Below are positions 4,018-53,961 of a DNA stretch of 64,000 nucleotides, piece after piece. Source of the DNA: a virus (taxonomy: Duplodnaviria; Heunggongvirae; Uroviricota; Caudoviricetes). The DNA lies in the IMG/VR virus record IMGVR_UViG_2681813233_000007. One strand, written 5' to 3'. The translations under genes were made by a program, and so were the position numbers. The notes beneath the pieces are model-generated. The model saw only the letters and a list, made by a program, of their open reading frames with translations. It did not search any database and was not told the DNA's origin. Within the stretch, counting starts at the first letter, position 1; each line of letters begins with the position of its first letter.

Positions 4018-4385
4018 TGACCATCTCTGTTTTAGACCGCCTGAAATTAGGTAAAGAGCTATCAGATCTAATGCAGGCGCAGAAAACTGCGCCAGTATTG
4101 CAACGCGTCACCATTGGTAAGCAGATTGTTGATGTGATGCTGAAATTGGGCCTGGGGACTGCCGCGCAACCGGCAGCGGAACCGCAACAACAGGCTGATC
4201 CTGTTGTAGATGAAGTCCCTAAGATAGTGACTGACTTCCTGGGCGGTGTGTTCACAAAGTCCACACAAATGGAATTTATTGATGCGCTGCGTGGGATCTC
4301 AAACTATGTTGGCGAGTTCCTTACGTTGGAGCAGGCTAAAGAGCAGACCATAAGCTGGGTGAAAGCTAACGGTTATGCCGGGTAA
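4017..4385 (+). CDS. Hypothetical protein (DdrA-like position)
   Basis: 122 aa; ATG overlaps the upstream stop. Confidence 0.4.
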   Translation: MTISVLDRLKLGKELSDLMQAQKTAPVLQRVTIGKQIVDVMLKLGLGTAAQPAAEPQQQADPVVDEVPKIVTDFLGGVFTKSTQMEFIDALRGISNYVGEFLTLEQAKEQTISWVKANGYAG

Positions 4386-8634: not shown

Positions 8635-8652
8635 AAGTTAAATTTCTAACAT
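8635..8652 (-). promoter_or_regulatory. Operator-like motif ATGTTAGAAATTTAACTT
   Basis: Member of the dispersed TGTTAGAAA motif family; upstream of the 8825 ORF. Confidence 0.45.
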
Positions 8653-9858: not shown

Positions 9859-10200
9859 GCTGTTTCTAAATCGGAATGTATGATCTGCATCATCGTCTGA
9901 AGTCATCCATTGCTGAAATTTTTAGTTGATCTTCCATGTTTTCAGGCTTATATTCATGCCGTCGTAGCAAATTCTGCGACCGGGTTTGACAGCCTGAATA
10001 CTTACGCGGACAACCGCACATTTCCGATATTGCGGTATTTTTGTGTCCGTAAAACCACGTTACGCCCGAATTATGGTGGGGCGTGATGGGGAGGCTTCGG
10101 CCTGCTGGTTTCGTAAGTGCCAGTCTGTCAACCCTGTCACGTCCTGCCACCTGTTTGACAGCGGGTCGCAGGTTGTTTATCAACTTACGAGGCCGTAACT

Positions 10201-20807: not shown

Positions 20808-22031
20808 GTGACGGGAACAGCAATGAGTCAACACACTGATACTTCTAATCTGGAAATTATCTCGACAGCAATTGAAACGCTGCGCACACAAATCGCTCTT
20901 ATACAGAAACGGAATCCGGGTGATGACCTGTCAAAGCGACTGCACGAGAGTGTCATTGCCACTACAGATAACCTGGTGGCGGAAATCAACAAGCTGCTTG
21001 ATGATGGGGCAGTTGATTACAATAAGCTGGTGGATCAGTTTGAGGAATACCAACAAGCCGTTAATGATGGCTTGATCCGTTTTTCACAAGTCACAGGCGT
21101 ATCAGCGACAGTTGAAAGCCTAGGTGATGCAGTTAATCAATTTGCCGCGAATATGCGTAATGAGATCGGCAATCTGGAAGCGCGTCTTGAACAGGCAAAT
21201 ACACTGCGTAAATCTGCCGAAGCCGATTTGAACCGTTACAAAAAAGACTATCCGCCAAGCCTGACAAAGCGGCTGGATGTTGCGGAGAAGGATAACCGCA
21301 CGCTGAAAAGAGAGCGCAGGGAACTAAAAGAGCGTTTAACCAAGCTCAATCAGCAATGCATTGATTATCAAGGCGAAGGCGTCACACTGCGTAAAAAGTT
21401 GGCTACAGCGCAGAGCATTATCGAAACATTAAAGCGAGAGTGCTCACAGCTTGGTCACGATCTGAACCGTGCTTGTGGCATGGGACAAAGACCAGAGACA
21501 TTTCCACTCATGTATGATGGAAGGGATGCCATTGCCTACATCCATGAGTATCCGCACGGCCTGGTTGCGGAAACAGGGCAGCGTGGCGAAGCACTGTTGA
21601 CGGCTAATTACCATCAACAAATCAGAACCAATCGCCTGTTAACGATGGATGTGATCCCATCGGTATGGGGAACGCCGCTTTACTATCGCCTGCCGGGCTT
21701 CGAAAAGGACTGGAATACCGACATAGACGAATGTCTCGCAGATAAAATTATGGCGTACCTGGAGACGGATTTTCCGCGCTTATATCGCCGGATTATGGAC
21801 TCTAAGGATGCGCCAATCGATGAATTAAAAATGCGTCCGGAGACGCTGGAGGCAATCAAGCAGACGGAGTTTGATACTGTATTCAGTGTGGCCTGCATTC
21901 CAAGCTGTTTCCATGAAAGCATCCCGTTCATGCAAGGAGATCGTCGTCAGGAAATCATTGACGCTTGCCGGGTATGGGCGAACGAATGGGATAAGAAGAA
22001 TGGGGGTGTAGAAGATCTTTATGGGAAATAA
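20808..22031 (+). CDS. Hypothetical protein, N-terminal coiled coil
   Basis: 407 aa ORF downstream of an operator-like motif; no recognised domain. Confidence 0.45.
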   Translation: MTGTAMSQHTDTSNLEIISTAIETLRTQIALIQKRNPGDDLSKRLHESVIATTDNLVAEINKLLDDGAVDYNKLVDQFEEYQQAVNDGLIRFSQVTGVSATVESLGDAVNQFAANMRNEIGNLEARLEQANTLRKSAEADLNRYKKDYPPSLTKRLDVAEKDNRTLKRERRELKERLTKLNQQCIDYQGEGVTLRKKLATAQSIIETLKRECSQLGHDLNRACGMGQRPETFPLMYDGRDAIAYIHEYPHGLVAETGQRGEALLTANYHQQIRTNRLLTMDVIPSVWGTPLYYRLPGFEKDWNTDIDECLADKIMAYLETDFPRLYRRIMDSKDAPIDELKMRPETLEAIKQTEFDTVFSVACIPSCFHESIPFMQGDRRQEIIDACRVWANEWDKKNGGVEDLYGK

Positions 22032-22032
22032 T

Positions 22033-22050
22033 GTGTTAGAAATCTAAAAT
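22033..22050 (+). promoter_or_regulatory. Operator-like motif GTGTTAGAAATCTAAAAT
   Basis: Motif family member at the start of the non-coding/tRNA region. Confidence 0.45.
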
Positions 22051-22188
22051 CACAATTCGAATGTATTGATTGTGGAGATAACTTAACATAGAATTTTCCT
22101 TGCTGGTGGGCAGTACCCACGTTTCGCTTGCTGGGCTTGATAGTCACTTATTGGTTATTGTTTGCCCACCAGCATTTAACAAATTAAA

Positions 22189-22206
22189 GTGTTAGAAAAG
22201 TATGGT
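22189..22206 (+). promoter_or_regulatory. Operator-like motif GTGTTAGAAAAGTATGGT
   Basis: Motif family member 155 bp after the previous one. Confidence 0.4.
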
Positions 22207-22685
22207 AATGCAAGAGCACGCTTTGGCACCGTGCAGGCCAAAGTTCAGCAGGTTTAGTGCGGAAAGTGGTTTCAGAGAGAGCACTTTGCGGAGTAAACGA
22301 CAATACATGTTGAGCCACGGAAGGTCTTTTTAAGGTGTTCATTGATGATGGTCCGGCAGAGAGTAACGGTACATGCTGCATCTAATCATCAATGCACATC
22401 TTCAACATTAAGGAGGCATAGGGATTTTTGTGGCGGTTACCTTTTGCCCTGAGTCTCCTTAATGTTGCGGTAATGCACCTATGCGGATGTGGCCTTGCAT
22501 TGTGTCTTGAAAGAATGGGGTAAGGCCGGGGATATCCCCAGGGGGAGGCACCCCCGCTGCAACGAACAGCCACAGACGGCAGTCGAGTGATGGAAACGTG
22601 TAAAGACTTTAAACCTCGTTACGGCTGGCGTGGCAAACGCGACAACCGAGACAGAGCGGTGACGGGCGGAGAGAGTGCCGCATCA

Positions 22686-22805
22686 AGAAAGAAGCCGACT
22701 TGTGATCCCTTTCTGCGGGCATTTGAAAGTGAATCCAGCTCAGGCAGTCGGCTTCTTTCTTGTGTGAGATGTAGCGTATTTGCCCATCTTCGGGTGGGCT
22801 TTTTT
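22686..22805 (+). ncRNA. Candidate structured RNA 3-prime end: 15-bp perfect inverted repeat hairpin plus rho-independent terminator
   Basis: AGAAAGAAGCCGACT (22686-22700) pairs with 22746-22760; then GCCCATC-TTCG-GGTGGGC and T-run at 22782-22805. Confidence 0.4.
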
Positions 22806-23265
22806 AGGGTTTTCGTCATGGTTAGCGACTTTGCGGCGGTTTAGAAACCGACCATTAAAGTAAATGCAAACGATGATCTGATGATGGTAGCGGCCTAAGA
22901 AGCCAGACGCCACGGGGTATGAGTCGTCCCCCGTCAAAAAATCGACCGCAGAGTGTCCCCGTCTGTGTATTAGGGAACGGGGAGGCATAACAGGCAAGGG
23001 CGCTGGTGTGATTAACCAGATGAATGAGAAGGGTCAGGTCTTTCTGGTCAGCGCCCTTACCTGTTACGTCCCTCCCGCGTAACAGCCATTGGTTAATGGC
23101 TTTCTGGGATAATGTCTTGTAACGGGTATATCCCGTCATGCTGAAGGCGCTAATCACGCTGGAAGCCAGGGTTATGCATCCCCTGTTACCGAATTGCAGC
23201 CAGGGCGCGGTGCGCCGAAAAGCATACGGAGGTGGAAGCCCTCGCCGGAGACGTACCCGGCAAGT

Positions 23266-23342
23266 GATGGTGTAGCTCAGTAGGATAGAGCAGCAGCCTT
23301 CTAAGCTGTCGGTCGGTGGTTCGAATCCATCCACCATCGCCA
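23266..23342 (+). tRNA. tRNA-Arg (anticodon UCU)
   Basis: Cloverleaf by hand: acceptor GATGGTG/CACCATC, D-arm GCTC/GAGC, anticodon loop CTTCTAA, T-loop TTCGAAT, encoded CCA. Confidence 0.75.
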
Positions 23343-23344
23343 AT

Positions 23345-23417
23345 GCCGGTTTAGCTCAGTTGGTAGAGCGCCTGCCTTGTAAGCAGGATGTCAGCGGTTC
23401 GAGTCCGTTAACCGGCA
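23345..23417 (+). tRNA. tRNA-Thr (anticodon UGU)
   Basis: Acceptor GCCGGTT/AACCGGC, D-loop AGTTGGTA, anticodon loop CTTGTAA, T-loop TTCGAGT. Confidence 0.8.
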
Positions 23418-23961: not shown

Positions 23962-24211
23962 TCGCAACGTTAAGAGTATTTGGCTAATTAAGCGAATGCC
24001 GGAAGCAGAACCGGATCATCAAATGCGTACAGGCGTCATCGCCGCCCAGCCAGCCAAGTGCTCTTACCATTGCGGTGAATGCGGCTAAGCGCACGCGGAA
24101 CAGTTAAAACAATCCTCCTTAGTGGTTAAGTCAAACATCCCGGCGTTAATTGTTAACTGGTTAACGTCACCTGGAGGCACCAGGCACCGCAATCTAATAA
24201 AGTTTCAAGCA

Positions 24212-49133: not shown

Positions 49134-49237
49134 ATACTGACTGTTGCGCCCTGGCATTATCGTGGGGTATATTTCTACGGCACCTTAGAAAAACGGGTGC
49201 CGGGATTGGAACCCCGGATAATGTCAAAGGCGACACA

Positions 49238-49259
49238 GACGCCGAAAGCGTCTTTTTTT
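49238..49259 (+). terminator. Rho-independent terminator
   Basis: GACGC-cgaaa-GCGTC followed by TTTTTTT. Confidence 0.7.
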
Positions 49260-49444
49260 GTGTCATGCCATCGCACAGCCATACGTAGCGTTTAGCTCAG
49301 AGATCAATGGTAGTGCTGGCTGGGCTGCCGAAAGGCAGGCCGGTTCCCTTTGACGCCGGTAGTTCCAACCCAGTCAGTGCTACCGCCATTGAGATTGGAA
49401 CCTCACGCGGTAGCTCCTTAACTTAGTCAAAGGAGGCTGCCAAT

Positions 49445-53631: not shown

Positions 53632-53961
53632 ATGGGCTATAGCAGACTCGACGATAGGTACATTGAAGACGATATTTTTCGTGCGCTGTTTCACCAGGAA
53701 ATGATTAAGCGGGTATCGGAGTATCACTCTGATAATTTCCAGTACACGATAAAGATTGATGAAGTATATCGTTCAGACCTTGCAGCCTACAGGGCGTATG
53801 GCAATGCAGATTTGCGCTGGGTATTCCGGGTGCTGGTGGGCCATGAGTCAGAAATGGAAGAAATGCCCGCAGGGACCACGTTAACTCTTCCTGATGTGGC
53901 ATGGCTGAGGAACAAGATCCGTGATTACGCAAGCGCGAAACCGGAGATAGAAAATGCCTGA
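53632..53961 (+). CDS. Hypothetical protein
   Basis: 109 aa; stop overlaps the start of the next ORF. Confidence 0.4.
   Translation: MGYSRLDDRYIEDDIFRALFHQEMIKRVSEYHSDNFQYTIKIDEVYRSDLAAYRAYGNADLRWVFRVLVGHESEMEEMPAGTTLTLPDVAWLRNKIRDYASAKPEIENA

Follow-up and report, generated by a model that had tools for sequence, protein, structure and literature searches.

A conserved chain of RNA hairpins as the probable leader of a repressor-controlled early operon in a D6-type phage-plasmid

The locus considered here raises the question of what is encoded in a gap of ∼1.2 kb without genes, located between a pmgS-like gene (20808–22031) and a tRNA array in the IMG/VR record IMGVR_UViG_2681813233_000007 (Caudoviricetes), of which a stretch of 64 000 nucleotides, referred to below as the window, was analysed. 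Judged by its sequence, the window is a P1-like phage-plasmid of the phage D6 type; positions 22000–23300 are 98.5% identical to Escherichia phage D6, which annotates nothing in the gap. A first-pass annotation had flagged positions 22380–22810 as a GC-rich, highly structured block and a candidate non-coding RNA (ncRNA). Our analysis leads us to propose that this block makes up the 3′ two-thirds of a plus-strand RNA of ∼705 nt that is not translated, extending by inference from the sequence signals from ∼22101 to 22805. The idea of an ncRNA therefore stands, with a structure kept by compensatory changes, but as part of a leader starting at ∼22101 and not as a gene confined to the flagged block. 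We consider it highly probable that the region is a non-coding structured RNA of the plus strand and, with less assurance, we favour the explanation that it is a leader and small RNA (sRNA) precursor heading a repressor-controlled early operon of the phage-plasmid; the part of this reading that invokes an sRNA acting in trans is tentative. The RNA lies outside the described families and, on this reading, would be organised like the DicF locus.

The start of the transcript, ∼22101, is placed on the basis of a sigma-70-type promoter (Table 1), the only promoter-like site in 21900–23400, with none following the terminator. The promoter hexamers are kept in all D6-type relatives, while the sequence of the 17-nt spacer is variable. 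The two operator-like motifs noticed in the first pass proved to be members of a larger set: the 13-nt motif AWWRTGTTAGAAA occurs 12 times in the window, where 0.85 sites would be expected (∼14-fold over-representation; 0 of 100 shuffles reached 12), and its sites include those at 8643, 9838, 20781, 22030, 22186, 26102, 30535, 31945, 43494, 47973, 48635 and 60289. Such scattering is how the dispersed operators of a repressor like P1 C1 behave, and the motif, which is distinct from the P1 operator ATTGCTCTAATAAATTT, probably serves a D6-type C1-like repressor as its operator. At the other end, the predicted plus-strand terminator is present as described, with a G+C-rich stem of seven pairs (22782–22799), a UUCG loop and a tract of six T (22800–22805), and it is maintained in ∼135 P1- and D6-type loci, where variants include U·G to C–G and G–C to G·U changes and tracts of 6–8 T.

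Between these signals lies a chain of hairpins (Table 1), and the structured unit, which begins near 22101, exceeds the flagged interval. Stability was expressed as a z-score relative to 200 shuffles of each segment. The description of the block as highly structured holds for several hairpins, with z-scores from −3.1 to −5.9, and fails for two segments: the run of short hairpins Pe, Pf and Pg (22489–22558; z = −1.7), which is no stabler than its shuffles and near-invariant with single wobble variants only, and module B1. Likewise, the G+C enrichment exists but is modest (0.53–0.58 at 22400–22800, compared with 0.37 at the promoter and 0.45–0.49 in the neighbouring gene). All the features listed in the first pass were recovered, with positions shifted by 1–2 bases. 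The palindromes reported earlier are found at 22528–22539 (GGGGATATCCCC) and 22541–22555 (GGGGGAGGCACCCCC), and the perfect inverted repeat given as 15 bp is in fact 17 bp long, with arms at 22684–22700 and 22746–22762 and 45 nt between them. This repeat forms the basal stem of hairpin I4; an asymmetric internal loop separates it from an inner stem, which is capped by an apical loop containing UGCGGGC. A 19-nt linker, the end of which is an invariant UUU, separates I4 from the terminator. The two arms of hairpin Pc carry AAGGAGG (22410–22416, 5′ arm) and CTCCTTAA (3′ arm), and the stem of the 5′-terminal hairpin is maintained in relatives with one C–G to G–C swap and one U·G wobble. The conserved single strands of the leader are GGAGUAAACGACA and GGUAAUGCACCUAUGCGGAUG. 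The minimum free energy is −235 kcal/mol on the plus strand versus −195 kcal/mol on the minus strand. The minimum-free-energy fold also contains a long-range closing helix (22207–22219 with 22489–22501), which we rejected: its 5′ partner varies freely and its 3′ partner is invariant.

Table 1. Positions in the window of the elements of the leader and of the open reading frames that overlap it.
Feature	Positions	Strand	Remarks
Operator-like site 1, AATGTGTTAGAAA	22030–22042	+	Match to AWWRTGTTAGAAA; direct repeat of the site at 22186
Sigma-70-type promoter, TTGATT-17-TAGAAT	22066–22094	+	Between the two operator-like sites
5′-terminal hairpin, 12-bp perfect stem (inverted repeat I5)	22101–22174	+	z = −4.3 (22098–22178)
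Operator-like site 2, AAAGTGTTAGAAA	22186–22198	+	Match to AWWRTGTTAGAAA; downstream of the inferred start
Hairpin Pa	22260–22290	+	z = −4.7 (22260–22294); G–C to G·U variants
Hairpin Pb, stem CATTGATGAT/ATCATCAATG plus inner stem (inverted repeat I2)	22334–22400	+	z = −3.1
Hairpin Pc, ∼22 pairs (inverted repeat I3)	22400–22471	+	z = −5.9
31-residue hydrophobic ORF, TTG start, MWRLPFALSLLNVAVMHLCGCGLALCLERMG	22428–22523	+	Start 11 nt past the AAGGAGG of Pc
Short hairpins Pe, Pf and Pg (including two G/C palindromes)	22491–22555	+	Predicted fold
Junction motif CCCCGCTGCAACG	22552–22564	+	Relatives switch modules here
Module B1, conserved, purine-rich	22565–22683	+	No significant structure, z = −0.2 (22566–22683)
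85-residue ORF, spurious	22587–22844	+	Runs through I4 and the terminator
Hairpin I4	22684–22762	+	z = −4.4 (22682–22764)
Intrinsic terminator, GCCCATC-TTCG-GGTGGGC and T6	22782–22805	+	Invariant TTT just before
Rest of the untranslated leader, to the first tRNA	22806–23265	+	90–92% identical to P1-type phages

The evidence that these helices matter as structures comes from D6-type leaders gathered from PLSDB, IMG/VR and metagenomes, which amount to ∼29 distinct sequences of 80–100% identity. Two leaders from Salmonella sp. Sa1423 plasmids (L003 and L009) were excluded from the covariation counts because they contain dozens of 1–2-nt indels, probably assembly errors. Across the 26 pairs of I4, 97.6% of the alignment cells are paired, compared with 34–51% when the partner is slid, and seven of the pairs have changed on both sides (for example, G–C to C–G, A–U to U–A and U–A to C–G), giving a covariation score that was reached by none of 500 shuffles. 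The apical UGCGGGC is kept even in relatives in which both stems differ. For the upstream module (22250–22566; 82 predicted pairs) the corresponding values are 98.9% and 40–47%, and double changes occur in 12 cells, a number that 0 of 500 shuffles matched. Within this module, all 22 pairs of Pc are intact in every sequence, with compensatory double changes at three of them. The remaining helices show wobble variation only or are invariant; in Pb, four pairs have a one-sided change that is mostly kept through G·U, and at one of these three sequences are unpaired. Compensatory substitutions beyond the controls, as looked for in a structured ncRNA and named as a check when the block was flagged, are thus found in related phage-plasmids for both I4 and Pc.

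The upstream module also indicates which strand is transcribed. Read on the plus strand, it contains 114 G·U cells and five A·C cells, and 15 pair columns vary between Watson–Crick and G·U compared with four that vary to A·C; among invariant pairs, three are G·U and none is A·C (binomial p ∼ 0.006). This excess of G·U over A·C points to an RNA transcribed as the plus strand. The same asymmetry, seen in the upstream module and the terminator, would be meaningless for duplex or cruciform DNA and bears on a different explanation, namely that the region acts at the DNA level, for instance as a cruciform, as a signal for single-strand initiation or priming, as a site of recombination or inversion, or as a structure linked to an origin. 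Such a role would fit the flipped loops seen at two different hairpins in relatives. The loop of Pc (22416–22454) is replaceable and invertible, with three unrelated versions among relatives; L011 and L023 carry its exact reverse complement, L250 has an inverted copy from which 10 nt are deleted, and the loop of Pa (equivalent to ∼22262–22290) is inverted in L037. Judged from their sequences, these flips look like the products of recombination between hairpin arms. The equal pairing of I4 on the two strands and the ban helicase gene that ends the region's operon in P1 are also compatible with a DNA element. However, a promoter, operators and a terminator frame the region as a transcription unit, and a repeat scan of the region revealed no iterons or tandem repeats, making a DNA-level element very improbable.

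Does the transcript encode a protein? No feature is annotated beneath the region in 121 PLSDB records or in 99 complete Escherichia coli plasmids from RefSeq. The 85-residue ORF had been dismissed as probably spurious when the block was flagged, and the relatives bear this out. Its frame is uninterrupted in the window and its close relatives, but the fifth codon has changed from TGT to TGA in six or more distinct relatives, the MINF7C group has additional stops as well as an insertion of 110 nt, and the Shigella dysenteriae and E. fergusonii versions, from which B1 is missing, have no counterpart. The ORF spans I4 and the terminator, has no Pfam or NCBIfam match and has never been annotated, so that it is almost certainly not a genuine gene. 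The minus-strand ORFs of the region are also broken in relatives and, judged from the aligned sequences, the leader holds no conserved protein-coding frame of meaningful length.

The 31-residue hydrophobic ORF deserves separate consideration, as its TTG start lies 11 nt past the AAGGAGG on the 5′ arm of Pc, which is a perfect Shine–Dalgarno sequence. The upstream module could accordingly be a highly structured mRNA that encodes a small membrane peptide akin to a type I toxin; in such an mRNA, the Shine–Dalgarno sequence is locked in Pc by the anti-Shine–Dalgarno-like CTCCTTAA and processing or refolding would switch translation on. The spacing is suitable, the predicted peptide has a hydrophobic helix followed by a charged tail, three of the four substitutions in the conserved part are synonymous, and an open frame, a start codon and a hydrophobic N-terminus are found in all three unrelated versions of the Pc loop. 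Of 48 loci, 34 have the ORF intact, as do 110 of 119 plasmid matches. Nevertheless, frameshift extensions, a 1-nt deletion or a loop inversion that removes the start alter the peptide in 14 of the 48 loci (29%), while the RNA helices persist in all of them, and the synonymous changes are exactly those that preserve the structure. U-rich loops encode Phe and Leu by default. Outside D6-like plasmids, where the ORF is never annotated, no homologue was found; there is no Pfam or NCBIfam match, and a search of 5.8 billion protein clusters returned a single weak partial match. Like the type I toxin mRNAs hok, tisB and zorO, the window has a very stable fold that hides the Shine–Dalgarno sequence of a hydrophobic ORF of ∼30 residues but, unlike them, it has no detected antitoxin RNA, no family match and a peptide that 29% of the loci do not preserve. 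No antisense promoter-like site was seen on the minus strand in 21900–23400. A peptide mRNA would also leave 22565–22805 unexplained, and we regard it as improbable.

The genomic setting suggests the operon to which the leader belongs. In P1, the same slot is occupied by the C1-controlled promoter Pban (Op72), followed by a `dicF-like region', trnA and trnT, and then tciABC, trnI and ban; because the slot matches this stretch from Pban to trnA, the flagged block would sit in the leader of the D6 counterpart of the P1 ban operon. The window shares with P1-type ban-operon leaders a homologous terminator and downstream leader running to the tRNAs and, by prediction, a repressor-controlled promoter upstream. 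Identity to P1, P7, SJ46 and other P1-type phages is 90–92% from 22779 onward to the tRNA, and by sequence the window joins these leaders only through the terminator and the downstream part. The P1 leader thus has the same order of repressor-controlled promoter, untranslated leader, terminator, 460 nt and tRNAs, but it is governed by different C1 operators and between promoter and terminator has only an element of ∼100 nt related to the sequence preceding dicF (the pre-dicF element), where the window has ∼680 nt of D6-specific modules (the 5′ hairpin, Pa–Pg, B1 and I4). The 460 nt that follow the terminator are 85–100% identical over 68 unique P1- and D6-type sequences, are more conserved than the flanking genes and contain no conserved ORF in these sequences; they are probably additional structured leader RNA. 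An imperfect 27-nt inverted repeat is present in this part (arms 22979–23005 and 23049–23075). Downstream, ARAGORN identifies tRNAs for Arg (anticodon TCT, 23266), Thr, Ser and Met. The first tRNA (23266–23342) is Arg (TCT) in the window and in L004, L006, L007, L008 and L010, and its slot is occupied by Asn (GTT) in P1, L003, L005 and L011; the D6 record also labels a tRNA-Asn, and some relatives have additional Tyr (GTA) or His (GTG) tRNAs. The anticodon identity and the content of the array therefore vary among near-identical phages.

A strong terminator between the sole detectable promoter and the tRNAs, with no promoter-like site after it, and a leader and tRNA array that remain untranslated for more than 1.2 kb, might suggest a purely cis-acting leader: an attenuator or antiterminator that sets passage past 22805, or a protection against Rho, which would dose the tRNAs and downstream genes. 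P1-type phages, however, share the terminator, the 460 nt and the tRNAs but lack modules A, B1 and I4. Since P1 has the same terminator and downstream genes without them, the modules appear dispensable for read-through and cargo-like, which favours action in trans over action in cis. They are also gained and lost independently. Two candidate devices were examined and rejected. The arm of the 5′ hairpin and the 5′ arm of the terminator could pair as an antiterminator in the window, but this pairing is lost in MINF7C-type sequences, and conserved alternative partners for the terminator arms were not found. A boxA or Nus-type antitermination site at AGCATTTAACAAA (22172–22184) has a boxA-like core that is not kept in relatives, and it overlaps the operator region. 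On balance, a role confined to cis is unlikely.

We thus return to a leader that doubles as an sRNA precursor, for which the following sequence of events can be envisaged. On release from the repressor, the promoter would fire; most transcripts would end at 22805, giving a stable structured RNA, and read-through would supply the tRNAs and the genes beyond them. RNase III and RNase E may process the transcript at the long perfect stems of Pc and I4 and at the unstructured B1, freeing smaller stable RNAs, notably a 3′ species of ∼125 nt that would comprise I4, the linker, the UUU, the terminator hairpin and the U-tail and would carry an Hfq-type 3′ end. This species could then act in trans, as does DicF once carved from the dicBF transcript of the cryptic prophage Qin. 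I4 resembles the RNase III hairpins of T7 early mRNA of the R1.1 type in having two stems, a lower and an upper one, separated by an asymmetric internal loop. By this analogy, its 17-bp stem and the ∼22-pair duplex of Pc would be of suitable size for phage RNase III sites, although the conserved apical loop of I4 would not be needed at such sites.

Several observations weigh against this proposal and should be set beside it. The relatives are close, many of the helices never vary and shared ancestry alone can make a set of sequences exceed a shuffle control. I4 by itself does not discriminate between the strands. The loop inversions weaken the plus-strand stem of Pc in the variants concerned and show the region to be shaped by processes acting on the DNA as well, and an RNA that we call non-coding contains a perfect Shine–Dalgarno sequence with an ORF behind it. 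Finally, sequences complementary to the I4 loop are no more frequent in the window than chance, and no significant internal complementarity was found. One candidate target, GAAATGCCCGCAG (53860–53872, plus strand), is complementary to the apical loop at 12 of 13 positions and lies within an ORF (53632–53961), ∼95 nt before the next ORF; it was rejected in view of its position inside an ORF far from the start codon and the chance level of complementarity window-wide.

DicF, the closest parallel in mode of working, is released from the polycistronic early dicBF transcript through termination and the action of RNase E and RNase III (PMC5069750), and the D6 leader looks like another version of that design. 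DicF is antisense to ftsZ and other host mRNAs; for the D6 leader, complementarity searches, which covered the window, gave no ftsZ-type target. Both have structured RNA modules in a long phage early transcript closed by a terminator, but the window does not match the DicF model and lacks the pre-dicF element. A search with the Rfam DicF model (RF00039; gathering threshold 48 bits) gave no match at E ≤ 10 in 22096–22830 and none in P1, L004 or L005, while Qin dicF, the positive control, scored 76.7 bits. Over 98 nt, the element carried by P1 and by five MINF7C-type relatives shares 78% identity with the stretch of Qin that directly precedes dicF, so that the P1 `dicF-like region', as judged by sequence, resembles the flank of dicF and not DicF itself. 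The junction motif CCCCGCTGCAACG is identical at 15 of 16 positions to a Qin sequence (L239, ∼1052–1067) located between the pre-dicF element and dicF, and in both the window and Qin it comes after a G/C hairpin. Matches resembling STnc100, scoring 33–41 bits against a gathering threshold of 47, occur at 24071–24191 in the window (upstream of a 107-residue ORF), at 4226–4345 in P1 (L002, just before tciA) and at 1147–1287 in Qin (L239, between dicF and dicB). On this sequence similarity, they would represent a second RNA module common to ban-type and dicBF operons.

No described family accounts for the leader. The Rfam/Infernal check proposed in the first pass came back empty: with Rfam 15 at relaxed thresholds, no family, including riboswitches, tmRNA, C4 and sRNAs, reached its gathering threshold in the leader, the best sub-threshold scores being those of STnc240 (25 bits, minus strand), tmRNA_permuted (24 bits) and MicA (22 bits). 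A tmRNA was rejected, as the recurrent tmRNA_permuted score (24–25 bits) stems from the homologous terminator region and ARAGORN detects none. The immunity RNAs of the C4 and P4 CI type (Rfam clan CL00128) are likewise phage RNAs processed from an operator-controlled leader, but this family matches the window at 10069–10154 and 49303–49390 and not in the leader. The two C4-type antisense RNA genes lie within 9948–10154 and 49180–49390, the first with its a1b1 target element (9948–10000) and the second adjoining an isrK-like RNA (49180–49258); the phage thus has two immI-like RNA modules elsewhere in the window. When the window, P1, Qin and five P1-type loci were searched with a covariance model of I4, no further copy was detected, and a gapped-pattern search of IMG/VR for I4-like hairpins gave chance matches only, none of them with the conserved loop or the terminator. 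The literature on P1 transcriptomics and D6-like plasmids, a body that did not extend to the P1 genome, the D6 genome or the 1994 dicF papers, does not mention the leader.

The region is present in 99 of 5426 complete E. coli genomes (∼2%), on plasmids in every case and at no chromosomal place, and a 19-mer scan of GTDB genomes gave no match to the element. From these searches, it seems to be restricted to D6-like phage-plasmids of Escherichia, Shigella and Salmonella. Comparison of 86 unique leaders revealed six architectures. Most (61) are of the P1 type, with a short upstream part, the pre-dicF element and the terminator; 15 are of the window type, and five, of the MINF7C type, add the pre-dicF element between I4 and the terminator of a window-type leader. 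The remaining five comprise three recombinants (L005, L006 and L016) that switch at the CCCCGCYGCAAC junction, a low-quality assembly (L009) and a P1-type leader without the pre-dicF element (L038). The break-point that separates the L005 and L016 architectures is the CCCCGCTGCAACG junction, possibly a joint for recombination or a signal for processing. Among these relatives, hairpin modules have been swapped, gained and lost independently.

This mobility invites a more speculative view, that of the leader as a string of interchangeable RNA cassettes (`RNA morons'), with Pc, I4 and the pre-dicF element each an independent trans-acting RNA and Pc also a DNA flip-switch for the 31-residue ORF. 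We think this decidedly improbable as it stands; if it were true, P1, D6 and lambdoid phages would trade modules by recombination at short joints of the CCCCGCTGCAACG kind, the RNAs might serve as sRNAs directed at the host or as decoys against its defences, and the orientation of Pc would turn the membrane-peptide ORF on or off.

For the preferred reading, a non-coding leader and sRNA precursor, the implications extend beyond a single locus. In E. coli, Salmonella and Shigella, P1-like phage-plasmids are frequent vehicles of resistance genes, and an early, repressor-controlled operon of one such lineage would open with more than 1 kb of unannotated RNA. The analysis corrects the impression, given by the ORF track, of a protein encoded here, and the new covariance model could join the RNA family libraries. 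The analysis also provides a case of RNA modules shuffled between phage families and supplies candidates for new phage sRNAs, which may act on the host as the phage turns to lytic growth.

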